The notes below the pieces were generated by a model that saw nothing but the letters and a program-made list of their open reading frames with translations, was not told the origin of the DNA and did no database searches. Below, piece by piece: positions 47,021-60,411 of a DNA stretch of 64,000 nucleotides (positions are counted from its first letter, which is position 1; each line of letters begins with the position of its first letter). Source of the DNA: Roseitalea sp. (GTDB lineage Bacteria; Pseudomonadota; Alphaproteobacteria; Rhizobiales; Rhizobiaceae); assembly GCA_017642895.1 (NCBI GenBank), contig JAEPON010000012.1, forward strand, positions 37,014 to 101,013. Direction: 5' to 3'. A program made the translations under genes and the position numbers.

Positions 47021-47110
47021 GGAGGGGTGGCAGAGTGGTCGATTGCGGCGGTCTTGAAAACCGTTGAGCGTGCGAGCGTTCCGTGGGTTCGAATCCCACC
47101 CCCTCCGCCA
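47021..47110 (+). tRNA. tRNA-Ser (anticodon UGA)
   Basis: GGAGGGG acceptor stem pairing with CCCCTCC-G-CCA, anticodon loop CUUGAAA, long variable arm, and T-arm GGGTTCGAATCCC. Confidence 0.93.
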
Positions 47111-47464
47111 CCGAAATTCGCAAGTAATTGTGCGATCTTCTGCGCTAGAGCCTGTCTTTACCGCACAGAGGCTTGCTTCGACGGCTGAATGAAACCGGTC
47201 GATGGCATGCTCGACCACATTTGGCATCGGCATTTTGAGGTTTCCCTCTCAACTATCAAGACCAATTAGCGCATCGGCTCATGCCGGTTGAGACCGACCT
47301 TTGTGTGATTGATTGCCCACGGAGACATCATAGGTCCGCACAAGCGAACACCTGGCGGCATCCACGGACAGCGCCACACGTTCAAAGTTGAAAAGAAAAT
47401 TAGTACGAGGAGTCCTCATACGATTTTTGTTGATCTGCTTCAGAATCTCGTACACAAATGTTCT

Positions 47465-48016
47465 ATGAAAGCATTGGCAGACATCGCCTCAGTGCTAAGC
47501 GGGGTTTCACCGCCGAGAGGGCGCTACGGGGCTGATCTGTATGTGCAGATCAAGGACTTGAAGGAAAACGGTGCGCCTTCAACCAAAGGGCCGGCGCCGT
47601 CGGCCAAACGTGCGACGCGGATAGCCGTGCGCGATTTGCTCGTCGCCTCCCGCGGTGACGAAGCGTCCGTGGTGCGTCCCTCGCCCCGCATGATCGGCGC
47701 TTATGCTGGCCTCGATGTGTATCTCATTCGACCGGACCTCAATCACGTCGATCCCAACTATTTACTAATCGCCCTCAACAGCGATGCAGCGCTCAAGCAG
47801 TTGAGGATGGCCGCTACCGGCGGCGCGCTGCCTCGCATACCCAAGCAGGCTTTGGAGACCGTGGAACTGCCGCTCCCAAGTCTCGACGCGCAGCGAAAGA
47901 TCGCTCAGATCGGCGTGCTGGCTAAGCGTTGCGAAACACTTCAAACAAAAAGATGCGAAGCGCAATCGAGATTGAATGCTGCGATCCTCGCTAAACTAGT
48001 CAAAACAGCGGCATGA
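47465..48016 (+). CDS. hsdS: Type I restriction-modification specificity subunit, half-size (single TRD)
   Basis: 183 aa from ATG 47465. The N-terminus MKALADIASVLSGVSPP is typical for HsdS. There is one target-recognition domain and then a conserved helical region (LPLPSLDAQRKIAQI...). It ends 13 nt upstream of hsdM. Confidence 0.72.
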   Translation: MKALADIASVLSGVSPPRGRYGADLYVQIKDLKENGAPSTKGPAPSAKRATRIAVRDLLVASRGDEASVVRPSPRMIGAYAGLDVYLIRPDLNHVDPNYLLIALNSDAALKQLRMAATGGALPRIPKQALETVELPLPSLDAQRKIAQIGVLAKRCETLQTKRCEAQSRLNAAILAKLVKTAA

Positions 48017-48029
48017 GACGGAAACATTC

Positions 48030-49583
48030 ATGACCAGAACAGAAGACATCAATAATGCGGTTTGGGCGGCTTGCGACACGTTTCGCGGAGTCATCGATGC
48101 CGAGCAATACAAGAACTACATACTCGCGCTGCTCTTCCTCAAATACATCAGCGATGTCTGGAACAAGCACTACAGCGACATGCTGGAGGAGTTCGGAGAT
48201 CATCCGCAGCGCGATTTACGCATTCGCCGGCGCCTCGAACGCGAGCGTTTCAAGCTGAAGGAGATTCAATACCGAAACGAGGACGGGGAAATCGTCGAGA
48301 CCTTCCTGTCGAGTTTCGACAGCCTCTACGAACGCCGCAACCGCGACAATGTCGGTGAACTGATCAACATGGTGCTCGACGCCATCGAACAGGCGAACGA
48401 GCCGAAGTTGAACGGCGTCTTCCGCAATATCGATTTCAACTCCGAGATCAGCCTCGGCCAAACCAAGGATCGCAATCGTCGCCTCAAAAATGTCCTGGAG
48501 GATTTCGCCAAGCCGAGCCTCGACCTCAGCACCGTCAGTGAGGACGCAATCGGCGAAGCCTACATCTACCTGATCGAGCAGTTCGCAGCGGACGCCGGTA
48601 AGAAGGCTGGCGAGTTCTTCACGCCGCGCAAGGTATCCGAGGTCGTCGCGAAGCTCGCCGCGCCCAAGGACGGCGCGTTGATCTGCGATCCGGCTTGCGG
48701 TTCAGGTTCGCTCCTTCTGCGCGCCGGCGAAGAGGTCGGCACCGACAACTTCCGCCTTTATGGCCAGGAAGCGAACGGCCAGACCGTGGCGCTCGCCCGC
48801 ATGAACATGTTCCTGCACGGACGGGACGCTGCGGACATTCGCTGGTGCGATACCCTCAACGGTCCGACCTTGCTCGAAGGCGATCATCTGATGCGCTTCG
48901 ACACCGTCGTCGCCAACCCTCCGTTCAGCCTCGACAAATGGGGAGCCGAGAACGCCGAGGCCGATCCCTACCGGCGCTTTGCGCGCGGGGTGCCGCCGAA
49001 ATCGAAAGGCGACTACGCCTTCATCCTGCACATGCTTGCCGTCGCCCGGCCTGGCGAAGGCCGCGTTGCGGTCGTCGCGCCCCATGGCGTCCTGTTCAGG
49101 GGCGGCGCTGAAGGGCGGATTCGCGAGAGCATCGTTCGAGACAACCTGCTCGACATCGTCGTCGGATTGCCGGCCCAGCTCTTTCCGACGACGGGCATTC
49201 CGGTTTGCGTCCTCGTCTTCGACCGGGCGCGGGAGCCTGGCGGCGCGCGCGAGACCGAGCGTGACGTGCTGTTCATCGATGCGAGCCGCGAGTTTGCGTC
49301 CGGCAAGCGCCAGAATCAGCTTCGCGACGAGGACGTGGCGAAGATCGTCGCGACGGCGGCCGAACGCGCCGAGATCGAACGCTATTCGCACCGCGCCGCG
49401 TTCGAAGAGATCGAGCGCAACAAGTTCAATCTCAACATCCCGCGCTACGTCGACACATTCGAGCCCGAGCCCGAAATCGACATCCAGGCCGTCCAAGACG
49501 AAATCCGCGACCTCGATCGGCAACTCGCCGAGACGCGGGCCGAAATGAACCGGCATCTGAAGGAGCTGGGCATTGAGGTCTGA
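48030..49583 (+). CDS. hsdM: Type I restriction-modification N6-adenine DNA methyltransferase subunit
   Basis: HsdM N-terminal domain (ILALLFLKYISD), SAM motif DPACGSGSLL and catalytic NPPFS. Confidence 0.95.
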   Translation: MTRTEDINNAVWAACDTFRGVIDAEQYKNYILALLFLKYISDVWNKHYSDMLEEFGDHPQRDLRIRRRLERERFKLKEIQYRNEDGEIVETFLSSFDSLYERRNRDNVGELINMVLDAIEQANEPKLNGVFRNIDFNSEISLGQTKDRNRRLKNVLEDFAKPSLDLSTVSEDAIGEAYIYLIEQFAADAGKKAGEFFTPRKVSEVVAKLAAPKDGALICDPACGSGSLLLRAGEEVGTDNFRLYGQEANGQTVALARMNMFLHGRDAADIRWCDTLNGPTLLEGDHLMRFDTVVANPPFSLDKWGAENAEADPYRRFARGVPPKSKGDYAFILHMLAVARPGEGRVAVVAPHGVLFRGGAEGRIRESIVRDNLLDIVVGLPAQLFPTTGIPVCVLVFDRAREPGGARETERDVLFIDASREFASGKRQNQLRDEDVAKIVATAAERAEIERYSHRAAFEEIERNKFNLNIPRYVDTFEPEPEIDIQAVQDEIRDLDRQLAETRAEMNRHLKELGIEV

Positions 49584-50511
49584 GGGCGCGCACCATAAGG
49601 GCCGCAAGGTCGGCCGCACGCTGAAGCTCTTCCTTGTCGACGGCTCGCCGACCGGCGTGATCACGGCGGAGCTCGGCAACTGGTCCGGCAAGGCCGTCGT
49701 GGCCCCGCGCACGGCGCTACCCGAGCTGATCAGGCGTGAGGAAGCGTCGCGCACCGGCGTCTATCTTCTTATGGGCGCCGACCCGGACAATCCGGCGCGC
49801 ACCCTCGTCTATGTCGGCGAGAGCGACAGCGTCCGCACGCGGCTCGCCAGTCACGATGCGGACGACGCCAAGCAGTTCTTCACACGCGTCTGCCTCATCG
49901 TCTCCAAAGACGAAAACCTGACCAAGGCGCATGGCCGCTATCTGGAAGCGCGGATCATGGCGCTGATCCGGGCAGCGGCGCGCGCCGTCCTGGTCAACGG
50001 CACCGAGCCGGACTTCAAGGGCCTGCCCGAACCCGAGATCGCCGACATGGAGGGCTTCCTGTCGGAGATCGAGGTCTTGCTGCCCGTGCTCGGCTTCGAT
50101 GTTCTACGCCGCGCGGCGGAAAGCGGCGACGCCGATGATGGCCAGGGCGCCGCAGAATCCGTTTTCACCTTCACCGAAGCGGGAACGCAGGCCCGCGCCA
50201 AGGAGGCCGGCGGCGAGTTCGTGGTCCTCGCCGGCTCGCTCGCCCGCGTGAAGGAGACGCGCACGATTCACGACGGCGCCAAGACCCAGAGGCGGCAATT
50301 CGTCGAGGACGGCGTCTTCGTGAAAACCGAGGACGGTCAGCACTACGCCTTCACCCGCGATGTCGCCTTCTCCTCGCCTTCGGGCGCCGCGGCCGTGGTT
50401 TATGGCGGCAATGTCAGCGGCCCGGCCTATTGGAAGCGTGAAGGCGACGGCCTTTCCTACAAGGACTGGCGCCAGCAAGCCCTCGCCCAGGCGCAGGGAG
50501 GCGCGGAATGA
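49573..50511 (+). CDS. GIY-YIG nuclease-like protein with a DUF4357-like C-terminal domain, embedded in the RM operon
   Basis: TTG 49573 follows AAGGAG. GVYLLMG...LVYVGESDSVRTRL...YLEARI fits the GIY-YIG blocks. The C-terminal FVVLAGS...SSPSGAAAVVYGGNVSG resembles DUF4357 (from memory). It overlaps hsdM by 11 nt and hsdS by 4 nt. Confidence 0.7.
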   Translation: MRSEGAHHKGRKVGRTLKLFLVDGSPTGVITAELGNWSGKAVVAPRTALPELIRREEASRTGVYLLMGADPDNPARTLVYVGESDSVRTRLASHDADDAKQFFTRVCLIVSKDENLTKAHGRYLEARIMALIRAAARAVLVNGTEPDFKGLPEPEIADMEGFLSEIEVLLPVLGFDVLRRAAESGDADDGQGAAESVFTFTEAGTQARAKEAGGEFVVLAGSLARVKETRTIHDGAKTQRRQFVEDGVFVKTEDGQHYAFTRDVAFSSPSGAAAVVYGGNVSGPAYWKREGDGLSYKDWRQQALAQAQGGAE

Positions 50512-51863
50512 CGGACGCCGCCCTTTCCTACGACAACGAAGCAACAGCAGAAGCCAGCTTTGAGGCAAGTCCGCCAAGTTCCTACCCGCCGAGCGTTCAG
50601 CCCGGCATCCCGACGCTAGGACGCAAACCCGAGGGCTGGTCACGTGTCAGCATCGGCGACTTACTAGAACCTGTGTACCGGCCTGCAAAGCTTGCCGACG
50701 ACGAGCAGTATCAACTGGTCACAGCCAAGCGCAGTCGCGGCGGTATCGTTCCGCGCGCCATCCTTTACGGTCGAGATATCCGTACAAAGACCCAGTTCTA
50801 TGTCGAGCCGGATGATTTCCTTATCTCTCGCCGCCAAATCTCGCACGGTGCGTGCGGTTTGGTCCCGCCGAACCTCGACGGCGCAGTGGTGTCAAACGAG
50901 TACGTGGCGTTCAAGCCCAAGAGCGGACTCGACCTCCGCTTTCTGCAACACCTGTCACACTCCGTCTATTTTCAGCAGACATGCTTTCATTCGAGCATCG
51001 GCGTCCATGTCGAAAAGCTTGTTTTCAAGATCGAGGATTGGCTCGAATGGGAGATCGACGTACCGCCGATGGCCGAACAGCGGCGGATTGCGGACGTCCT
51101 CGACGCTTGGGACCGCGCAATCGCGCATACCGACGCGCTGATCGACGCAAAGCGGAAGCGCTTCAACTGGCTCTACTCCGAGCTCTTTCCGGCATCGGGT
51201 ACATCCCTCCCAAACAGTTGGGAGGCGGCGCCTGTTACGAGTGTGGCTGCCGTCCGTTTCAGTGGGGTGGACAAGAAGACCGTCGAAGGTGAGAGGCCGG
51301 TTAGGCTCTGCAACTACACTGACGTCTTCAATAACCGCCGCATCACTGCCGACATGCCCTTCATGTCCGCGACCGCGAAGCCGCGCGAGATCGAAGCGTT
51401 CACGCTCCAGCTTGGTGATGTTGTGTTCACCAAGGACTCCGAAACAGCGGAAGAAATCGGCGAAAGCGCCGTGGTCGCCGAACCGTTGGACAATGTCGTG
51501 TGCGGCTATCACTTGGGCGTGGCGCGCGCACGCCCTGACACGATGATCGGCGATTTTCTTGCGCTAGCCCTCCGCCATCCGTGGGTCCGCGAGGAGTTTA
51601 GAAAAGCCGCGAACGGAGTGACGCGCTTCGGTCTCAATCTCGATGTCATGGACCAAGTCCAGGTGCTGTTTCCGCCGCTCGATCAGCAGGAAAAGCTCGT
51701 TGCTACCTTGAACGCGGTGGAGGACGAAATCGAGCTCCTGACGAAGTCCTTGACGCCCCTGCGAGAGCAGAAAAAGGGCCTGATGCAAAAGCTGCTCAGC
51801 GGCGACATGCGCCTCTCATCAACCGAGTCTCTGAGAGGGAAGGAAGATGCGCATGCCGATTGA
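50508..51863 (+). CDS. hsdS: Type I restriction-modification specificity subunit (full length, two TRDs)
   Basis: 451 aa. Two variable TRDs are separated by the conserved helices PPMAEQRRIADVLDAWD and PPLDQQEKLVATLNAVE. Confidence 0.92.
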   Translation: MTDAALSYDNEATAEASFEASPPSSYPPSVQPGIPTLGRKPEGWSRVSIGDLLEPVYRPAKLADDEQYQLVTAKRSRGGIVPRAILYGRDIRTKTQFYVEPDDFLISRRQISHGACGLVPPNLDGAVVSNEYVAFKPKSGLDLRFLQHLSHSVYFQQTCFHSSIGVHVEKLVFKIEDWLEWEIDVPPMAEQRRIADVLDAWDRAIAHTDALIDAKRKRFNWLYSELFPASGTSLPNSWEAAPVTSVAAVRFSGVDKKTVEGERPVRLCNYTDVFNNRRITADMPFMSATAKPREIEAFTLQLGDVVFTKDSETAEEIGESAVVAEPLDNVVCGYHLGVARARPDTMIGDFLALALRHPWVREEFRKAANGVTRFGLNLDVMDQVQVLFPPLDQQEKLVATLNAVEDEIELLTKSLTPLREQKKGLMQKLLSGDMRLSSTESLRGKEDAHAD

Positions 51864-52926
51864 ACTGCTCTCCTTCGACCAGGCCCTCGACAAGGCTTCG
51901 GGATATTCCAAACGGCATCTGCTGCTGGGAAATGGCTTTAGCATTGCTTGCGAGCCAGCCATCTTCACCTACGGGTCGCTGTTCGAGCAGGCCAAACCCA
52001 ACATGTCGGACGAATTGCTCAAGGTGTTTGAGAAGTTGGGCACCACCGATTTCGAGGCGGTAATTCGCGCGCTACAAGACGCTTCCGTCATTGTACCCAT
52101 CTACACCGAAAAAGCGCCGAAGACAGCCGCGCGCATTGCAGCGGACGCACGCGCACTCAAGGAAGCGTTGGTCTCAGCGGTAGCCGGAAAGCATCCCGCC
52201 CGACCAAATGACATCGGCGACGAGCGCTATTCGGCTTGCCGGCAGTTCCTCGCGACCTTCATCGGTGGCGACGCCGGAGGAAAGGTCTACACGCTAAACT
52301 ACGACCTATTGCTCTATTGGGCGCTCATGCATGACCCTGAGGAGGATGACGGCCTGGGGTTGAACCATGATGATGGATTTCGCAAAGACCCAGATGATTT
52401 GGATGCTGATTATGTAATCTGGCATGGAGAAACCCACGCCAATTCGCAGAATGTCCACTATCTTCACGGAGCCATGCACCTTTACGATGCCGGCGCGGAA
52501 CTGCAGAAGTACACTTGGGTGAACACCGGGAAGGCCCTGGTCGATCAGGCAAATGAAGCCATTGCTGCCAACTTCTTTCCGGTGTTTGTTGCAGAGGGTG
52601 AAAGCAGACAGAAGCTCGCGAAAATCAAACACAGCGCATATCTGCATCATAGCTACAAGAGTTTTCACGGCATCTGCCGACAAGGCGCCAAGACAGCCCT
52701 TTTCATCTTCGGTCACTCGCTTGCTGAGAACGACCGGCACATTCTCCACCGGATCGGTCGCAGCAAGCTCGCGCACGTTTTCGTGAGCCTGTTTGGCGAC
52801 CCGAACTCGCCCGCTAATCGGCAAATTCGCGCGAACGCTGACGCAATCGGGAGGCTTCGGGCCGAAGGTGCGGCACCGTTGAAGATCGACTTTTTTGACG
52901 CTGCGTCCGCCCAAGTCTGGGGCTAA
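51847..52926 (+). CDS. DUF4917-like protein with SIR2-type (DHS-like NAD-binding) motifs, embedded between hsdS and hsdR
   Basis: 359 aa. Ordered motifs: LLLGNGFS (aa 25-32), VYTLNYDLLL (147-156), YLHGA (205-209) and LFIFGHSLAENDRHI (285-299). It overlaps the hsdS end by 17 nt and stops 3 nt before hsdR. Confidence 0.7.
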   Translation: MRMPIELLSFDQALDKASGYSKRHLLLGNGFSIACEPAIFTYGSLFEQAKPNMSDELLKVFEKLGTTDFEAVIRALQDASVIVPIYTEKAPKTAARIAADARALKEALVSAVAGKHPARPNDIGDERYSACRQFLATFIGGDAGGKVYTLNYDLLLYWALMHDPEEDDGLGLNHDDGFRKDPDDLDADYVIWHGETHANSQNVHYLHGAMHLYDAGAELQKYTWVNTGKALVDQANEAIAANFFPVFVAEGESRQKLAKIKHSAYLHHSYKSFHGICRQGAKTALFIFGHSLAENDRHILHRIGRSKLAHVFVSLFGDPNSPANRQIRANADAIGRLRAEGAAPLKIDFFDAASAQVWG

Positions 52927-52929
52927 ATC

Positions 52930-55900
52930 ATGACCGAGAGCCCGCAATTCTCCCTCTCCGAAGCCGGGCGCGAGCAGTTGCAGGCGCTCATGACGCTGTC
53001 GGCGCTCGGCTGGCGCTATGTCACGCGGGCGGAGGTCGACCGACAGCGCCGCCACCGCCGAACGAACGTGTTGCTTGAAGACACGCTGCGCGGCCAACTC
53101 GCCGCCCTCAACCGCATCCGCGCCGGCGGGCGCACGCACGCCTTTTCGGAAGGCAATATCGAGACCGCGGTCGAGCGGCTGAAAGACGTTCGCTTCGACG
53201 GGCTCCTGCGCACGAATGAGCGGCAGACGGATCTTTTACAGCTCGGCGTCGCCTTGCCCCAGACCGTCGAAGGCCAGTCCCGGGAATGGCCTTTCCGCTA
53301 CATCAATTGGGGACAGGATCCGGACAGCCTGCGCGCCAACGCCTTCAACATGACAGCAGAGTTTCCGGTCGATTGGCCGGAAGGCGCGAGCATCCGGCCC
53401 GACATCGTGCTGTTCGTGAACGGCATCCCCTTCGCAGTCATCGAGGTGAAACGTAGCCAGGAGAAGGTCAGCCAAGGCATCAGCCAGCATCTGCGCAACC
53501 AGAAGCCCGACATCGGGGCGCCGAATCTCTTCTTTACGGCGCAGCTGCTCATCGCCGGAAACTCACACGAACCACGCTACGCCACCGTTGGCACACCGGC
53601 GAAGTTCTGGTCCGCTTGGCGCGAGCGAGAAGACGCCCGGGATTACGTCGCCGACGTCGTGGGCCGGGAGATCGATGCGACCGACGAAGCGGCGATTTTT
53701 CAGGACTTCGGCCTGCATCGAAACAGGCACAACGGCATGCGCGAGGCCGGTGGCCGCATGGCGACCCTGCTCGACGAAATGCTGGTCAGTCTGTGCCGGC
53801 CCGAGCGCCTGCTCGATCTCGCTCGCCGGTTCACGCTGTTCGACGCGGGCGCGAAGAAGGTGGCGCGGCACCAGCAGTTCTTCGCCGTGAAGGACCTTCT
53901 GCGGCGCGTCGAAGCGCGCGGCGACAATGGACGCCGCGCCGGAGGCGTCGTTTGGCACACGCAAGGGTCGGGGAAGTCGCTGACCATGGTGATGCTCGCC
54001 AAGGCGCTGTCGTTCAGCGTGCCCACGGCCCGGATCGTGCTGGTCACCGACCGCACCGACCTTGACGATCAGATCGACAAGACCTTCAAGGCGACTGGAC
54101 TGTCGCCGGAGCGCGCAAAGACCGGCGAGCACCTCGTCGAACTGATCGAAGCCAGGGCGCCCGTGATCACCACGCTCGTTCACAAGTTCAAGGCGGGGCT
54201 CAACAAGCGCCGCGTGGTTGACGAAAGCTCTGACATCTTTCTGCTCGTCGATGAGAGCCACCGCAGCCAGTACGGCGACATGGAAAGCCTGCATCAGAAG
54301 ATGCGGGACGTGCTTCCCGGCGCATGTCTGATCGGCTTCACGGGCACGCCGATCGCGAAAAAGGAACGCAATACCTTTGCGAAGTTCGGGCCCCTGATTC
54401 AGCCCGTCTACTCGATGAAAGACGCGGTCGAGGACGGCGCGGTCGTGCCCCTTCTCTATGAAGGTCGTCATGTCGAGGAGGATATCGACGAAGACGCCGT
54501 TGACGCCTGGTTCGATCGAGTGACGTTCGGACTCACCGAGACGCAGAAAGCGGATCTCAAACGCAAGATGAGCCGGCCGCGCACCCTCATGGGCGTTTCC
54601 GCGCGGCTGCGTTGCATCGCCTTCGACGTAAGCCGGCACTTCGCCGAGAACTTCAAACCGGACCGTCTCAAGGCGCAAATCGTCGCGCCGTCCAAGCGTG
54701 ATGCGATCGCGCTGAAGGGCCTTCTGGACGAGTTCGGCGAAGTGACGTCCGAAGTCGTGATCTCAGCCCCGGATCAGCGCGAAGGCGAGAAGGCCATCGA
54801 CGAAGAAACCAACGACGAGGTCGTCAAGTTCTGGCGGCGAATGATGGACCGGCATGGTGGAGAAGAAAGCTACAACAAGAACGTCATCGCCGCGTTCAAG
54901 GGCTCCGGTGATCCGGATATCTTGATCGTTGTCGACAAGCTCTTGACCGGCTTCGATGCGCCGCGGAACACCGTCCTCTACCTGGCGCGCCCGATGAAAG
55001 AGCATGGACTGCTGCAGGCCATCGCACGCGTCAATCGCGTGTTCGACGAAGACGATGCGCCAGAAAAACCGTTTGGCTTCGTGATCGATTACTGTGGGGT
55101 ACTGCGACATTTGGGCGAAGCGCTCAGCGCGAACGACGCGTTGCGTGACTTCGATGAGGCTGACCTTCAACGCTCAATCAGCTCCGTCGCCGAAGAGGCA
55201 CGAACGCTTCCACAGAAGCACGCAGCGTTGCTCGATCTGTTCGCCGGCGTTTCTAACGTTTTTGACGAGGAGGCTTACGCCAGAGAGCTCTCTGACGACG
55301 CATTGCGCGAACAGTTCTACCGGCGCCTATCGGAATTCTCGCGTACGCTTACAGTAGCCGTAAGCTCTCGAACCTTCATCGAAGAAACACCGCATGAGCG
55401 GCTGCTACGGTGGCGCTCCGACGAGAAACGGTTCATTGCGCTTCGGGCCCACGTGAAGGCGCGGTATGCCGACGCCATCGATTGGTCGGACTACGAACGG
55501 CGCGTCCGCTCATTGCTAGATCAGCATGTCACGGCCCATGAGGTGACAACGGTTGTCGAACCGCTCGCTGTATTCGATGATGGTGCGATCGAAGCGGCTA
55601 GGCAGGAACGGAAGCGATCCGATGCATCGATCGCCGATGAAATTGCACACCGAACACTCCGCACCATCGAAGAGAAGTGGGACGAGGACCCTGTCTTTTT
55701 CGAGAAGTTCTCGAAGCTGATCCGCCAGACGATCGACGATTTTCGTCGAGGTCGACTGGAAGAAAGAGCCTACCTCGAACGTATTCGGGAACAACGAGAC
55801 AAGCTTGAAACACGCGACGATGAGGATGATCCGACGCCTACGGAGTTGCGCGGAAAAGGCAATGAAACCGCGTTCTGGGGAATTTCGCGCCGCGAGCTTC

Positions 55901-56163
55901 GCAAAGCTGGCGTCGGCGACGAGCACCTGGCTGTGCGCGTTTCTCTGTCGTTAACCGACATTATCCAGCGCATGCGCCGCGTCGGGTGGCAACACGACCG
56001 CGATGTCCAGAATGAAATGCGCAACGCGATGGACGACTTCTTCTTTGATGAAGTCATGAGCAAGGACGGCGTCGATCTCGATCCTGCCGTGATGGATGGG
56101 ATCGTGAACGAAGTGCTGGCGGCGGCTCGGGTGCGGATGCAGGACGATGGCCGTGTCCGCTGA
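52930..56163 (+). CDS. hsdR: Type I restriction enzyme endonuclease/translocase subunit
   Basis: 1077 aa. N-terminal PD-(D/E)xK (RPDIVLFVNGIPFAVIEVKRS), helicase motif I HTQGSGKSLT and motif II LLVDESHRSQ. Confidence 0.96.
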   Translation: MTESPQFSLSEAGREQLQALMTLSALGWRYVTRAEVDRQRRHRRTNVLLEDTLRGQLAALNRIRAGGRTHAFSEGNIETAVERLKDVRFDGLLRTNERQTDLLQLGVALPQTVEGQSREWPFRYINWGQDPDSLRANAFNMTAEFPVDWPEGASIRPDIVLFVNGIPFAVIEVKRSQEKVSQGISQHLRNQKPDIGAPNLFFTAQLLIAGNSHEPRYATVGTPAKFWSAWREREDARDYVADVVGREIDATDEAAIFQDFGLHRNRHNGMREAGGRMATLLDEMLVSLCRPERLLDLARRFTLFDAGAKKVARHQQFFAVKDLLRRVEARGDNGRRAGGVVWHTQGSGKSLTMVMLAKALSFSVPTARIVLVTDRTDLDDQIDKTFKATGLSPERAKTGEHLVELIEARAPVITTLVHKFKAGLNKRRVVDESSDIFLLVDESHRSQYGDMESLHQKMRDVLPGACLIGFTGTPIAKKERNTFAKFGPLIQPVYSMKDAVEDGAVVPLLYEGRHVEEDIDEDAVDAWFDRVTFGLTETQKADLKRKMSRPRTLMGVSARLRCIAFDVSRHFAENFKPDRLKAQIVAPSKRDAIALKGLLDEFGEVTSEVVISAPDQREGEKAIDEETNDEVVKFWRRMMDRHGGEESYNKNVIAAFKGSGDPDILIVVDKLLTGFDAPRNTVLYLARPMKEHGLLQAIARVNRVFDEDDAPEKPFGFVIDYCGVLRHLGEALSANDALRDFDEADLQRSISSVAEEARTLPQKHAALLDLFAGVSNVFDEEAYARELSDDALREQFYRRLSEFSRTLTVAVSSRTFIEETPHERLLRWRSDEKRFIALRAHVKARYADAIDWSDYERRVRSLLDQHVTAHEVTTVVEPLAVFDDGAIEAARQERKRSDASIADEIAHRTLRTIEEKWDEDPVFFEKFSKLIRQTIDDFRRGRLEERAYLERIREQRDKLETRDDEDDPTPTELRGKGNETAFWGISRRELRKAGVGDEHLAVRVSLSLTDIIQRMRRVGWQHDRDVQNEMRNAMDDFFFDEVMSKDGVDLDPAVMDGIVNEVLAAARVRMQDDGRVR

Positions 56164-56863
56164 AGCGTCGTTCAAATGGGGGCGTCGGCGTATTGCTTAC
56201 TCAATTGAGCGAACTGATCGATCCCGGCTGAAGATTACAGTAACCCCGTCTTGCGAGGTGCGCGTAGTAGCACCTTTGCAAGCGCATAAAGACGAAATTC
56301 GGGAGCGGGTGCAGCGTAAAGGGCATTGGATCGTCAAGCAAATCGAGGACTTTGAGCAATATCGCCCTAAGACGCCAACGAGGCAGTTTGTAAGCGGAGA
56401 GACACATCTTCTTAAGGGTGTTCAGTACCGGCTTAGGGTAGTAAGCCATGTAGCGTCGAATATTTTCATTGACCATGACCGGATCGTTATCGAGACGCCA
56501 AGGTCTGAAAGCCGGCGCCATAAGGCTGCACTGCTAAAACACCTTTACAACATTGAAGCTCACAGAGAGTTCCCGGCCCGGCTCAACGCCGTTATGCCAG
56601 CATTTGGCGTCGATGGCGTCGAACATCCGCGCTTAATCATTCGGCCAATGATCAAGCGCTGGGGGAGCTTCACACCGAAGCGGAACCTGGTCCTCAACTT
56701 GGACCTCATTCAGGCCCCAGTATACTGCATCGATTATGTGATAGCTCACGAGTTAGCGCACGCGGTTCAGCCCGATCATGGCCCGCGCTGGAGGCGGCTG
56801 ATGGACCGAGCTATGCCCGATTGGCGCGAGCGGAAGATCCATCTGGAACAAAGTCTGCTTTAG
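56147..56863 (+). CDS. YgjP/DUF45-type HExxH metal-dependent hydrolase (M48-like)
   Basis: 238 aa. HELAHAVQPDHGPRWRRLM is the zinc-binding HExxH plus the downstream conserved block. It overlaps the hsdR end by 17 nt. Confidence 0.8.
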   Translation: MAVSAEASFKWGRRRIAYSIERTDRSRLKITVTPSCEVRVVAPLQAHKDEIRERVQRKGHWIVKQIEDFEQYRPKTPTRQFVSGETHLLKGVQYRLRVVSHVASNIFIDHDRIVIETPRSESRRHKAALLKHLYNIEAHREFPARLNAVMPAFGVDGVEHPRLIIRPMIKRWGSFTPKRNLVLNLDLIQAPVYCIDYVIAHELAHAVQPDHGPRWRRLMDRAMPDWRERKIHLEQSLL

Positions 56864-56934: not shown

Positions 56935-58164
56935 TTACTCACGCGGCCATGCCCAACTGGGCTTCGCTTCATCTTCAGTATCAAACAGCATTCCCTTGGT
57001 CAGGCGCTCTTCAATGGCGGTTTGTGATAGGCATTCATCAAGCCGTTCCACGCACTCGTCGAGCCAGATCAGCATTGCCGCCAGTCTCGGCTGCCCCTGA
57101 TCCTTCGCCTCTGCAGATATCGCCGTTTTGAGGCGGACGAGGCGTTCGCGCTCCTGCATCTGCTGAACAAGCGTTCCCACGAACTTCTCGCGCCTCGCTT
57201 CGATCCGCTGCCTTCGTTCGGCCTCCGCTCGCTCTCGTGCGTGTTCCGCTTCGCGAGCAGCCCGTTCTTTGGCTTCCTTCTCCCGTTCGATCTTGCGCGA
57301 TGCGATAGCGACGACCCCAATTGCGATCTCACGCGCCATCGTTTCGAGATTCTGAATCTTGCCGTCCGAGAAGGATCGGCGAAGGGCAGAACCACCTCCC
57401 CAGACCTGTTCGAGTTCGATCTTCAACTTGCCGGTGGGCACATAATCCCACTCGGCGATTTCCGGCCGTTCAAAGTATGACAGCGCATCCCAGCTGCGAC
57501 CGAAACGCCGGCTCCGATCCTGTTCCCACTTTTCGAGCTTTTTCTTCTCTTCTTCGGTTGGCACGTGCTTTCGCCGATCGAGCTTCTCCGTAACCGAAAA
57601 CGCTACCGTCTGACCTAGGACACTGAGCGCGGCGCTGTTCTCTGTCCGGACGTATCGGCCGGACTGTTCGACCAAGGCGCGCTGGAGGTTGAGAAGCACA
57701 CGTTCGGCGTGGTCGATGGATGCGGGCGCGATGTCCACATGGATAAGACCGCACCCGCTCGAACTGACCAGGCGCCTGTCCCCGGGGTTGGCTTTGCGGA
57801 GCTTTTTCAGCGTCCGCTGTACGATTGGATCGGGTATTATGTCGGTCGGGTTATCCGCGTTATTCTCGATTCGCGCCTTTGCTTCTGAAATCGCGGCCGC
57901 GACGCCGGGGCTCGGCGGATCGTTGGTCGATCCGTATACAACGACCTGGTCGGATATGTCCTTCCTTAGCCGCGGCAGCGGCGTCACCTCGACCGGTTTG
58001 CCGTGCTCGATTTTCGCCCAATGGCCCCGCGGCGGCTTGGGGATGTCGTGCTTCGAGCAAATTTTGTGGACCGCGACGTCTGAGACGCCGAGGTCTCCGG
58101 CGATTTTCGTGATCGGCTTCGACCAGACCAGATCATAGAACTCACGGCGGGTGAATGTCTGCAT
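56935..58164 (-). CDS. Hypothetical protein with an HTH-like N-terminus and a charged coiled-coil C-terminus
   Basis: ATG 58164 follows GGAG (the ORF track begins at TTG 58173). N-terminal FYDLVWSKPITKIAGDLGVSDVAVHKICSKHDIPKPPRGHWAK, followed by a long E/R/K-rich coil. It starts 27 nt downstream of the ATPase stop. Confidence 0.6.
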   Translation of the reverse strand: MQTFTRREFYDLVWSKPITKIAGDLGVSDVAVHKICSKHDIPKPPRGHWAKIEHGKPVEVTPLPRLRKDISDQVVVYGSTNDPPSPGVAAAISEAKARIENNADNPTDIIPDPIVQRTLKKLRKANPGDRRLVSSSGCGLIHVDIAPASIDHAERVLLNLQRALVEQSGRYVRTENSAALSVLGQTVAFSVTEKLDRRKHVPTEEEKKKLEKWEQDRSRRFGRSWDALSYFERPEIAEWDYVPTGKLKIELEQVWGGGSALRRSFSDGKIQNLETMAREIAIGVVAIASRKIEREKEAKERAAREAEHARERAEAERRQRIEARREKFVGTLVQQMQERERLVRLKTAISAEAKDQGQPRLAAMLIWLDECVERLDECLSQTAIEERLTKGMLFDTEDEAKPSWAWPRE

Positions 58165-58191
58165 AGTCTCCAATCCTATTATCGGCCAGGA

Positions 58192-59412
58192 TCACCTCCA
58201 AAGACCTGAAATCGGCGCTGCCGCCAGCCCGTCACCGAATGGAACGACATCTTTGCCGTCATAGAGCACGACGCCGTAAGCGAAGCGATCGCCGCACGCC
58301 TCGGCGAGCGCGCGAAGGCCTCTGAGGTCCCCGGATTTGACGGTGGCGCTCGCCTTGACCTCGATCGCAGCGATTTTCCCATCGTCGCGCTCCAGGACGA
58401 TGTCCACCTCGCGCCCGTCCCGGTCCCGGAAATGATAAGGCGTGACGGTCAGGTCCGTTGCCGCCATGAGCTTCAGCACCTCGGAAAATACAAAGCTCTC
58501 AAGCAGCGCGCCGAATGCTCCTCGGTCGGCCTTTATCCTCTCGGCTGTCAGGCCGCGGGCGCTGGCCAGCAGACCGGAGTCGAGGAAATGCAGTTTTGGC
58601 GTCTTCACGATGCGCTTCAGCGCATTCGTGAACCAGGGCTGCAGGGTTGCGATTAGGAACACCTGCCCAAGCAGGCCGACATAGCGCTGCCCCGTCTTGT
58701 GACTGACGCCGATACCGGCGCCGAGCTGCGAATAGTTGACCAGTTGGCTGGAGTATTCGGCCAAAAGCCGCACGAATTTTGGAAGCTCGGTCAGCTTTTC
58801 CACGTCGGCGATGTCGCGAAGGTCGCGCGTGAGGATCGACGCGAGATAAGAGCGCGCCCAATCCTGCTGGCGCCGTTCGCTTGACCGGGCGATGGCTTCG
58901 GGAAAGCCGCCGCGCAGGACGATGTGCGCCAAATCATCGCCGACAATGGCGTCCGGCTGGGCTCGAAGCCTTCCCTCGTAAAGGCGCTCAAGAAAGCGCG
59001 GTGTACGGCCATCGATTTCGGCGCGTGCGAGCGGCAGCATGTGCAGCGTTTCCATCCGACCCGCGAGACTGTCGGCGATCTTGGGAAGGGTCAGAACATT
59101 CGCCGAGCCTGTGAGGAGAAACCGGCCTGGGCGATAATCTTCGTCGACAGACTTCTTGATGGCGAGCAGAAGATCGGGCGCGCGCTGGATCTCATCGATG
59201 ATAGCGCGGTCCAGCCCCCGGACGAAGCCGGCGGGATCGGACTGGGCCGCCTCTAAAACGGTCTGGTCGTCGAGCGTGATATAGTCCCGGCCTTCCTCCT
59301 GCATCTTTTTCACCAGGGTGGCCTTGCCCGCCCGGCGCGGTCCGACGATCAAAACCACCGGCGTATCGGACAGGGCTTCCTCCGCCCGGCTTTCTAAGAA
59401 CCGCTTAAACAT
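58192..59412 (-). CDS. AAA+ ATPase (AAA_14/DUF4143-type) with a C-terminal PD-(D/E)xK-like motif
   Basis: ATG 59412 follows GGAGAGGGG. Walker A GPRRAGKAT, Walker B AIIDEIQ, and a C-terminal GREVDIVLERDDGKIAAIEVKAS restriction-endonuclease-like D...ExK. Confidence 0.85.
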   Translation of the reverse strand: MFKRFLESRAEEALSDTPVVLIVGPRRAGKATLVKKMQEEGRDYITLDDQTVLEAAQSDPAGFVRGLDRAIIDEIQRAPDLLLAIKKSVDEDYRPGRFLLTGSANVLTLPKIADSLAGRMETLHMLPLARAEIDGRTPRFLERLYEGRLRAQPDAIVGDDLAHIVLRGGFPEAIARSSERRQQDWARSYLASILTRDLRDIADVEKLTELPKFVRLLAEYSSQLVNYSQLGAGIGVSHKTGQRYVGLLGQVFLIATLQPWFTNALKRIVKTPKLHFLDSGLLASARGLTAERIKADRGAFGALLESFVFSEVLKLMAATDLTVTPYHFRDRDGREVDIVLERDDGKIAAIEVKASATVKSGDLRGLRALAEACGDRFAYGVVLYDGKDVVPFGDGLAAAPISGLWR

Positions 59413-59432
59413 CCCCTCTCCGAGTCTCCGAC

Positions 59433-59489
59433 AATTTGGAACTATCGAGCCTGGCTGATTGGAAGTCAATAGATCGCTAATTGGAAGTA
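59433..59489. repeat. Three direct copies of an (A/T)TTGGAA(G/C)T motif upstream of the ATPase gene
   Basis: TTGGAA cores at 59436, 59459 and 59481, so the spacing is 23 and 22 bp (about two helical turns). They lie in the presumed promoter region of the minus-strand ATPase gene. Confidence 0.5.
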
Positions 59490-59902: not shown

Positions 59903-60141
59903 GTCCCTCAGCCTGCGCTGGCAGACTGAACAGATAATGACGAATTATTAGGTCATCGTAGAATCGGCGGTGGAAACGGGCGTTTGGCGGTCAGAATCTT
60001 TTGCACGACACCCACAAGCCAGCTGCTGGGCGCGCCAGTGATCACTCTCGTGCATGCCCCTTCAGCAACGACATCTCCAACGCGAGTGCGATGAGCCTTG
60101 GCTGCGCGTCAATTCCGGCGCGCTATTCAAGGAGAAATGAA

Positions 60142-60411
60142 ATGAGCAAATCTCAAAACTTTCCGCCACGCTTTCTTTCTACGAACGAAGCCGCGCGGTT
60201 CCTGTGTCTTTCGCCGAGAACGCTGGAAAAACATCGCAGCCACGGGACAGGCCCGATGTATCGGAAGCTCGGCGGTCGCATCGTCTACTCGATCGATGAC
60301 CTCGAAAGCTGGGCCGACAAAGGGCTACGTTCTTCAACGTCCGATCACGGTGAAGACGTGATCCATCCGCCCAGCCCGAAACGTGCGAAACGCAAACCGG
60401 AAGAAAACTAA
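60142..60411 (+). CDS. Excisionase/MerR-type helix-turn-helix DNA-binding protein
   Basis: ATG 60142 follows AAGGAGA. LSTNEAARFLCLSPRTLEKHRSHGTGPMYRKLGGRIVYSIDDLESW matches the excisionase-family HTH pattern. Confidence 0.75.
   Translation: MSKSQNFPPRFLSTNEAARFLCLSPRTLEKHRSHGTGPMYRKLGGRIVYSIDDLESWADKGLRSSTSDHGEDVIHPPSPKRAKRKPEEN

Follow-up and report, generated by a model that had tools for sequence, protein, structure and literature searches.

A SIR2-fold DUF4917 protein in an exchangeable slot between hsdS and hsdR: a candidate NAD-consuming defence effector in a type I restriction-modification operon

Introduction

Why does a SIR2-like gene lie between the specificity and restriction genes of a type I restriction-modification (RM) operon, and is its product bound to the RM complex in function or only in transcription? 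The question is raised by a stretch of 64,000 nucleotides (nt) from Roseitalea sp. (contig JAEPON010000012.1 of assembly GCA_017642895.1, positions 37,014 to 101,013), here called the window, to which all unqualified coordinates refer. An earlier note on this DNA had read the gene in question, which belongs to the DUF4917 type and is wedged between hsdS and hsdR, as a likely cassette insertion that may encode an antiphage effector that depletes nicotinamide adenine dinucleotide (NAD) and could be held in check by or triggered through the RM complex. Our analysis places the gene in Pfam family DUF4917, predicts a SIR2 fold for its product, and reveals that cassettes are frequently exchanged at the hsdS/hsdR junction of this RM lineage, which serves as a slot for them. 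We consider it moderately probable that the protein is an autonomous SIR2-type NAD-consuming defence effector that is co-expressed with the RM system as a swappable cassette.

Results

The DUF4917 gene and its junctions

The listing of open reading frames (ORFs) of the window gives the gene at 51847..52926 on the forward strand, encoding a protein of 359 amino acids (aa). The gene and the blocks of its product that bear on the assignment are listed below; the hsdS/hsdR junction is termed slot 2 and the hsdM/hsdS junction slot 1.

51847..52926, + strand: DUF4917 / PDC-S21 gene, single-domain SIR2-fold protein (model-based), slot 2 cargo between hsdS and hsdR
51919..51942, + strand: LLLGNGFS, aa 25-32, glycine-rich NAD-binding loop (putative) after strand beta-1 (strand 22-27 in the model)
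52285..52314, + strand: VYTLNYDLLL, aa 147-156, TxNYD block with the putative catalytic Asn151
52321..52449, + strand: acidic loop, aa 159-201, net charge -11, enclosing the invariant D176-G-F
52459..52473, + strand: YLHGA, aa 205-209, HG block with the putative catalytic His207
52699..52743, + strand: LFIFGHSLAENDRHI, aa 285-299, GxS..D block after a Rossmann strand

Direct reading of the sequence showed that the start codon ATG 51847, preceded by the purine-rich GAGGGAAGGAAG, sits 17 nt inside hsdS, the stop codon TGA of which occupies 51861-51863. The DUF4917 gene ends with TAA at 52924-52926 and is followed, after 3 nt, by the hsdR start codon ATG 52930. An alternative in-frame start, ATG 51853, gives a 357-aa product and an hsdS overlap of 11 nt, and it is the start used by NCBI for near-identical 357-aa proteins of metagenome-assembled genomes of Roseitalea sp. 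The coordinates, the four motif blocks (numbered as in alignment A1) and the tight junctions on both sides were thus all found where the earlier note had placed them. A promoter and terminator scan of the operon gave no convincing internal promoter or terminator, nothing rising above shuffled expectation.

Family membership and active-site motifs

Profile searches made the window protein a full-length member of DUF4917 (PF16263; 238.5 bits against a cut-off of 28, E = 1.5e-70, profile positions 1-311 of 311), in agreement with the family named in the earlier note. The protein also matched the PADLOC model PDLC04960 of the candidate PDC-S21 (E = 3.6e-122, profile positions 2-334 of 336), while no NCBIfam model matched it. 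The family is large, with 4256 homologues at E < 1e-5 in a collection clustered at 90% and, across public data, no fewer than 2468 clusters at 50% identity. No domain fusion of DUF4917 was found; a few database entries have N-terminal extensions, and these contain no domain.

Conservation was assessed in an alignment of 116 diverse DUF4917 members that are 33-65% identical to the window protein. Residues G28, N29, G30, F31, S32, Y152, D153, D176, H207, G208, K221, K256, G289 and D296 are invariant, and N151, S291 and H298 are conserved in 113, 100 and 115 of the 116 members, respectively. The sole SIR2-type profile that matched was SIR2_2 (PF13289). The window protein itself matched it weakly and below its threshold (15.8 against 24.5 bits, E = 0.015), and 74 of the 116 relatives gave sub-threshold matches at E < 1, with a best value of 3.6e-7; SIR2_2, named in the earlier note, is thus related to the protein's family but distinct from it. 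The matched stretch of the window protein, residues 147-230, takes in both the N151 and the H207 blocks. A match to AbiH (PF14253) over residues 260-306 was likewise below threshold (14.3 against 30.9 bits), and 47 of the 116 members gave weak AbiH matches (best E = 7e-7). Among the 25 Pfam families listed for the 116 members at E ≤ 1, the sirtuin family SIR2 (PF02146) had zero matches. A Cys4 zinc module found no support in the alignment, in which only C35 (45%) and C131 (78%) are partly conserved and CxxC pairs are absent.

Between the TxNYD and HG blocks, the acidic loop carries a net charge of -11 over 43 residues. Relatives of at least 47% identity have net charges of -5 to -13 in this loop (-7 to -13 except in loci L002 and L094), irrespective of hsd adjacency, whereas in solo relatives of 28-30% identity it is replaced by a neutral, unrelated loop.

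Predicted structure

An AlphaFold2 model built from the 116-member alignment had a mean predicted local distance difference test score (pLDDT) of 95.1 and a predicted template modelling score (pTM) of 0.93. In a Foldseek search against the PDB, the top 19 matches all came from entries of the SIR2-HerA/Nezha complex, and the best was its Sir2 subunit (E = 8e-11 to 5e-4). The best 14 matches had query TM-scores (TMq) of 0.54-0.61 over about 370-420 alignment columns, with 14-17% identity and a probability of 1.0 to Sir2. Weaker matches comprised DSR2 (1e-2), followed by human SIRT2, PfSir2A, Sir2Tm and the SIR2 of SPARSA (0.02-0.07); canonical sirtuins as a group lay among these weaker matches at E = 0.02-0.2. 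The earlier note had compared the protein with ThsA and DSR2. Of this comparison, a weak DSR2 match stood, and ThsA was absent from the top 50 matches.

On the basis of the model, the window protein is predicted to have a Rossmann-type SIR2 fold, and its place is among the SIR2 proteins of the immune type ("SIRim" as used by Bonhomme et al.), not among canonical sirtuins. The structural match and the conservation support the SIR2 fold with glycine loop, Asn, His and GxS..D blocks that had been proposed in the earlier note.

Exchange of cargo at the hsdS/hsdR junction

Comparison of operons with and without DUF4917 revealed how the gene is placed. The DUF4917-free set consisted of nine plasmid operons (L105-L108 and L113-L117), whose HsdR proteins are the closest plasmid homologues of the window HsdR. 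Slot 2 was filled in all nine. Its cargo was a hypothetical protein with a Ser/Thr kinase (two operons), DUF3800 with a hypothetical protein (one), Shedu with a HAD hydrolase (two), HAD alone (one) or DUF6119/TIGR04141 (three). In seven of the nine, cargo and hsdR start overlap by a few bases, and in the other two they are separated by gaps of about 150-240 nt.

The backbones on which these unrelated genes ride can be almost the same. An operon with DUF4917 and one lacking it can have HsdR proteins that share as much as 96% identity (L037 against Neotabrizicola; L004/L042 against Mameliella and P. albus), and the HsdR proteins of L025/L028 are 90-91% identical to HsdR of Methylocystis parvus. 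In each of four operon pairs compared by blastn, homology was lost within the cargo and came back at 0-30 nt from the start codon of hsdR. On the other side, homology between L042 and L115 spans the 3' part of hsdS and stops 35-57 nt before the hsdS stop codon. The operon of L025 is arranged as in M. parvus, except that DUF4917 has been added after the kinase and before hsdR, and DUF4917 shares slot 2 elsewhere as well, its co-tenants being the kinase, DUF6119, SMODS, AGS_C plus a Schlafen-like protein, and a dGTPase-like HD protein. Across the lineage, slot 1 contains RhuM, a GIY-YIG/PDC-S14 gene or nothing. DUF4917 is therefore a discrete cassette in a recombinational slot whose borders are the 3' end of hsdS and the hsdR ATG.

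In 29 complete operons, the mean identity of DUF4917 was 66%, compared with 57% for HsdR, 49% for YgjP and 30% for HsdS, and DUF4917 distances tracked those of HsdR, HsdM and YgjP (Mantel r = 0.88-0.90). Because its conservation exceeds that of HsdR and YgjP and its distances follow those of the backbone, DUF4917 is subject to strong purifying selection and is often co-inherited with the backbone. We considered whether the Mantel correlations mark DUF4917 as an ancient obligatory partner of HsdR and rejected this, since HsdR proteins that are 90-96% identical carry other cargo. The correlation reflects inheritance and exchange among related operons, from which an obligatory partnership does not follow.

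Base composition had been the original argument for an insertion. The DUF4917 gene, with a G+C content of 0.560, is indeed more A/T-rich than hsdS (0.589), hsdM (0.613) and hsdR (0.612), but the first gene of the operon (half-S, 0.559) and the last (YgjP-like, 0.541) are equally low, so that composition by itself does not mark out the DUF4917 gene; the entire stretch of 47.1-61 kb has a value of 0.596, against 0.635 in its flanks. Low G+C content was consequently rejected as a sign of recent DUF4917 insertion. The cassette proposed in the earlier note was right in substance, by virtue of cargo exchange on near-identical backbones.

Neighbourhoods of DUF4917 relatives

Sixteen genome loci were obtained with a single-protein query, their DUF4917 proteins being 55-63% identical to the window protein and belonging to Alpha- and Betaproteobacteria and one cyanobacterium. 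The same operon arrangement recurs in 15 of the 16, with HsdR directly after DUF4917 in 14 of 16 and HsdS directly before it in 13 of 15. The common order is half-S, hsdM, slot 1, hsdS, slot 2, hsdR and SprT/YgjP. Within the close clade, hsd genes lie near DUF4917 in 12 of 13 genome loci. Of 80 metagenome loci at 45-64% identity, 38 extend for at least 1.5 kb to either side of the gene, and 29 of these have hsd genes; these counts are lower bounds, because the window's own Hsd proteins served as probes. The question of the earlier note, how often homologues adjoin hsd or defence genes, thus has a divided answer: close relatives are mostly hsd-linked, and distant ones are solo genes on plasmids, in integrative elements and in defence islands.

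Members of the same clade also occur without hsd genes. One lies in an integrative-conjugative element (ICE) with TrbI, a serine recombinase and an integrase, and others lie in integrase neighbourhoods, beside an McrB/Mrr-like gene, or beside an MmeI-like RM gene plus GmrSD; two further hsd-free contexts are apparently unrelated. In locus L094 (4072-9568), DUF4917 stands between a DUF1156 methyltransferase and a HEPN_Swt1-DUF499 ATPase, an Hma-like system, and in L102 (1005-5098) it directly follows a fused N6_Mtase-Eco57I-Methylase_S protein.

A plasmid survey returned 35 tblastn records, from which 12 distinct contexts were examined. Type I RM adjoins DUF4917 in two of these, where the gene lies immediately upstream of hsdM (Rhizobium pRL11) or 549 nt downstream of hsdR (Methylobacter). 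Solo genes were found among toxin-antitoxin genes, after a relaxase gene, in an ICE-like region, after an ars operon, and between retron Eco8 and an ABC-3C system. A TIR-domain gene directly follows DUF4917 on the Aliarcobacter plasmid pM830MA (L023, 6971-8807), a Thoeris-like pairing, and an LA2681-family HEPN gene directly follows it on a Brucella plasmid (L112, 5466-8069). These paired distant homologues are possible two-gene variants of the DUF4917 family. The Roseomonas homologue is preceded by a gene for an ATP-binding protein, with overlapping frames. We found no phage-borne DUF4917: tblastn gave no match in 50,697 phage records, and the structural search of BFVD gave no significant match.

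The RM operon and its surroundings

All genes of the operon lie on the forward strand and are tightly packed. As described in the earlier note, the DUF4917 gene is packed within a complete type I RM operon, whose hsdM, hsdS and hsdR were all confirmed by profile. The genes around DUF4917, and the tRNA gene in front of them, are as follows.

47021..47110, + strand: tRNA-Ser(TGA), by ARAGORN, directly upstream of the operon
47309..48016, + strand: half-size, single target-recognition domain (TRD) HsdS-like gene (half-S), first of the operon; Pfam Methylase_S, one stretch
48030..49583, + strand: hsdM, methyltransferase subunit; TIGR00497, 280 bits, above cut-off; Pfam N6_Mtase, HsdM_N
49573..50511, + strand: slot 1 cargo PDC-S14, DUF4357-containing; PADLOC PDC-S14, E = 2.6e-111; Pfam DUF4357
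50508..51863, + strand: hsdS with two TRDs; Pfam Methylase_S, two stretches; PADLOC Specificity_I, E = 4e-76
52930..56163, + strand: hsdR, restriction/translocase subunit; TIGR00348, 423 bits, above cut-off; Pfam HSDR_N, SWI2_SNF2, T1R_D3
56147..56863, + strand: YgjP/SprT-like zinc metallopeptidase gene, last of the operon; Pfam YgjP-like, E = 5.8e-51

Most related operons likewise begin with a half-S gene, which lies upstream of hsdM and accompanies a full two-TRD hsdS. Its listed ORF comprises 235 aa from a TTG start; its true start is probably further downstream, as relatives have about 195 aa. With PDC-S14, the hsdM/hsdS junction also holds a candidate defence gene, the second one embedded in the operon; its relatives are annotated as GIY-YIG nuclease family. 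At the other end of the operon, the YgjP/SprT-like gene overlaps the 3' end of hsdR by 17 nt, and it is the last gene in nearly all operons of the lineage (L003-L117), whatever their cargo.

The tRNA-Ser(TGA) gene stands where the G+C content drops from about 0.635 to about 0.596, and this point is a possible genomic island border. No direct repeat of the tRNA-Ser 3' end (att) was found. No ORF of at least 100 aa in 59.4-64 kb resembles an integrase by eye, these ORFs having had no profile search, and the ORF at 60001-60411 resembles, also by eye, a small helix-turn-helix/excisionase-type protein. About 2 kb downstream of the RM operon, an ATPase gene with AAA_14 and DUF4143 (58192-59469, - strand) matches PADLOC PDC-S01 (E = 4e-169) and is a third defence candidate within the low-G+C stretch. 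Between it and the operon, an ORF of 412 aa (56935-58173, - strand) encodes a protein whose C-terminal half is charged and probably coiled-coil, and which had no Pfam, PADLOC or NCBIfam match above noise.

Discussion

A proposed swappable effector behind restriction

The position of DUF4917 between hsdS and hsdR is explained by that junction being a cassette slot in this RM lineage, where unrelated defence genes, known ones such as Shedu among them, are exchanged by recombination. Since the slot is exchangeable, the gene's link with RM consists of co-transcription, probable translational coupling and co-mobilisation, and nothing indicates that the protein depends specifically on HsdMSR. For the protein itself, a NAD-consuming defence role appears the most plausible function. 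We infer NADase chemistry, an antiphage role, latency with a trigger, and independence from RM, and combine them as follows: the DUF4917 protein would be latent in the uninfected cell, as an autonomous second-line effector; a phage cue would switch it on; and the activated protein would hydrolyse NAD+, so that the infected cell would stop supporting phage growth, an abortive infection behind restriction. Autonomy is suggested by the solo DUF4917 genes elsewhere, by the varied positions of the gene, by the lack of fusions and by its listing in PADLOC as a single-gene system.

Several observations weigh against this autonomous NAD-consuming effector. We found no experimental antiphage report for any DUF4917 protein, PDC-S21 being a candidate, and no paper that treats DUF4917 as a defence gene. 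Searches of the PDB by sequence with HMMER, using either the window protein alone or the 116-sequence profile, gave no SIR2 match, which leaves fold, motifs and weak Pfam links as the basis for assigning the protein to SIR2. When the family profile was aligned by hhalign with the ThsA SIR2 domain (sequence as in 6LHX), only the G-loop (GAGLS) was aligned, and with an unverified Sir2Tm sequence only the HG motif (ELHG), at a probability of 0.2%; neither alignment was significant. The only biochemistry in the family, that of SliP, was read by its authors as lysine deacetylation and not as pure NADase activity (PMC10421069). The Mantel correlations fit a functional coupling with the backbone, and the filling of slot 2 in every DUF4917-free operon suggests that the backbone could need or regulate its cargo. 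Finally, the protein has a single domain without an obvious sensor and may require a partner, because its closest structural relative, the Sir2 of SIR2-HerA, needs a partner ATPase; HsdR, an ATPase translocase, is a conceivable one.

The lack of a sensor domain and the need of the closest structural relative for a partner ATPase keep alive a model like that of PrrC, in which the RM complex binds and silences the SIR2 protein until an anti-restriction protein (Ocr- or Stp-like) or another insult releases it to deplete NAD+. Its gene position is the same as that of prrC, the overlapping and abutting frames suggest stoichiometric co-expression, and the close clade is mostly hsd-linked, in genome and metagenome loci alike, and co-diverges with HsdR, HsdM and YgjP. 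The nearest structural relative depends on a translocase ATPase to function, sliP and hsdR share a transcript in C. jejuni, and the clade-specific acidic loop could, speculatively, mimic DNA and dock on HsdMS. Against such a guard, however, HsdR proteins of 90-96% identity run with unrelated slot 2 cargo, and no cargo-specific interface is therefore expected on the backbone. Same-clade members with the acidic loop also occur in hsd-free ICE/integrase and McrB-like contexts, other members of the clade lie upstream of hsdM, 549 nt downstream of hsdR or in non-type-I systems, and distant members are solo, with only two of 12 plasmid contexts adjoining type I RM. We therefore regard this guard as rather unlikely. 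The claim of the earlier note that the protein is held in check by or triggered through RM received no positive support, and the interchangeable cargo and solo genes make it less likely. A broader version, in which the RM lineage is a general effector dock, seems unlikely to us as well. According to it, intact RM would keep the slot 2 cassette latent, via HsdR or the SprT/YgjP-like protease, and a block or overload of restriction would set the cassette off; the NAD+-depleting guard would be DUF4917, docked through its acidic loop, and the cassettes may include the DUF4917 SIR2, Shedu, DUF6119, a kinase or others.

The chemistry and the trigger can also be read differently. The protein could be a sirtuin-type deacylase or an ADP-ribosyltransferase that regulates the RM enzymes or further proteins of the cell, or it could be secreted and target a host, as proposed for SliP. 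It shares its Pfam family with SliP, which was reported to deacetylate acetyl-lysine peptides with stimulation by NAD+ and Zn and to act on neutrophil histones; the catalytic Asn and His of SIR2 proteins also serve deacylases; and canonical sirtuins are among the weaker structural matches. We nevertheless consider this quite improbable. The Cys4 zinc module is not conserved, two Cys columns being partly so, PF02146 does not match, and the sole SIR2-type match is to the immune-type SIR2_2; structurally, the SIR2-HerA NADase matches about 8 orders of magnitude better than sirtuins. The family occurs in free-living marine and soil Alpha- and Betaproteobacteria and in a cyanobacterium, where the targeting of histones would make no sense, and its neighbourhoods are overwhelmingly RM, defence or mobile-element regions. 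The SliP effects were modest, moreover, at about 2- to 4-fold with 5 mM NAD+. It is very improbable, in our view, that the protein belongs as effector to a split system, in which another gene, elsewhere or in the same slot, supplies the activating small molecule or partner, as in Thoeris or CBASS or with an ATPase. The TIR gene after the Aliarcobacter homologue, the HEPN gene after the Brucella homologue, the ATP-binding protein gene overlapped by the Roseomonas homologue, and the SMODS or AGS_C gene sharing the slot in L062 and L072 would fit such a system. No partner is conserved family-wide, however, the window operon has no TIR, SMODS or HerA gene, the protein contains no ligand-sensor domain such as SLOG or STING, and ThsA is not among the top 50 structural matches.

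The autonomous NAD-consuming effector thus stays our preferred reading. The claim of an NAD-depleting antiphage effector in the earlier note appears plausible in view of the SIR2-HerA match, the AbiH links and the use of NAD+ by SliP.

What the locus adds

It is established that defence genes are embedded in type I RM loci and that PrrC exemplifies the principle, and the DUF4917 family has been catalogued as a candidate. The earlier note was not aware of any characterised RM-coupled SIR2 module of this kind, and its claim to novelty was overstated, as PDC-S21 was already catalogued and SliP, in an hsdR operon, was already published, if not as a defence gene. Our study adds that every sampled operon carried cargo at the hsdS/hsdR junction, a cassette slot with frequent exchange, and that SliP, published as a "secreted sirtuin", is a member of this RM-embedded family. 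Should DUF4917 proteins prove to be defence effectors that deplete NAD+, the SIR2 immune repertoire would gain a widespread family in a minimal, sensor-less form, and SliP would have to be re-examined as a phage-defence gene. The swappable slot is also a natural test bed for whether embedded effectors hitch-hike with restriction or are functionally layered behind it. We regard the locus as a solid lead and not as a surprise.

Comparison with known systems

The PDC candidates were collected by "guilt-by-embedding" from BREX and DISARM loci and from those of type I RM and put into PADLOC untested (Payne et al., bioRxiv 10.1101/2024.01.29.577857). Neither the text of that preprint nor the parts of its tables examined here take up PDC-S21. 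The window protein is a plain member of PDC-S21/DUF4917 and, as the candidates were defined, is embedded in a type I RM locus.

In the classical prr locus, prrC lies between hsdS and hsdR and is co-transcribed with them. The window gene shares this position with prrC of PrrC-EcoprrI, and its product is likewise presumed to be a latent suicide effector that backs up restriction. The two differ in that PrrC consists of an ABC-ATPase plus an anticodon nuclease, whereas the window effector has a SIR2 fold. PrrC is the archetype of RM-embedded systems and is almost exclusively RM-embedded (bioRxiv 10.1101/2024.01.29.577857); in contrast, DUF4917 also occurs solo and its slot swaps cargo freely, which departs from a near-exclusive association with type I RM.

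Of the DUF4917 proteins, only SliP (Cjj81176_0779) of C. jejuni has been studied experimentally, and its publication presents it as a flagellum-secreted sirtuin and histone deacetylase (PMC10421069). Operon analysis by polymerase chain reaction placed sliP on one transcript with the type I hsdR gene Cjj81176_0780; phage defence was not considered (PMC10421069). Purified SliP lowered NAD+ about 2-fold, and the substitutions G24A/G26A in its G-N-G loop reduced the activity (PMC10421069). Compared by family and description, not by sequence identity, the window protein resembles SliP in its DUF4917 membership, its G-N-G loop and its hsdR operon; SliP comes from a pathogen, whereas the window organism is an environmental, Roseitalea-like member of the Hyphomicrobiales.

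ThsA, DSR1/DSR2 and SIR2-APAZ (SPARSA), systems that deplete NAD+, share with the window protein the fold and the motif order G-loop, TxNYD, HG and GxS..D. Unlike it, they have a dedicated sensor, namely SLOG, a large C-terminal domain, or APAZ/pAgo. Relative to Thoeris, the window protein is single-domain without SLOG, and its operon has no TIR-domain ThsB partner; relative to DSR1/DSR2, whose C-terminal sensor region spans about 700 aa, it has 359 aa in all. Canonical sirtuins differ from it by their Zn Cys4 module and their match to PF02146, both absent from the window protein.

AbiH of Lactococcus lactis (PF14253), with which phage resistance has been shown experimentally in Lactococcus and which is now regarded as sirtuin-like, is another single-gene, SIR2-like protein of about 350 aa found on mobile elements; the window protein falls below the AbiH cut-off, and AbiH is not described as RM-embedded. 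Sir2 of SIR2-HerA/Nezha (8su9, 8sub, 8j4u, 8wld) differs in sequence, at 14-17% identity, and in context, as the window operon has no HerA gene and its DUF4917 neighbours are hsdS and hsdR. It is, like the window protein, a single-domain SIR2 of similar size, and it is the best structural match over nearly the whole chain. The Sir2 of SIR2-HerA is a NADase used in abortive defence.

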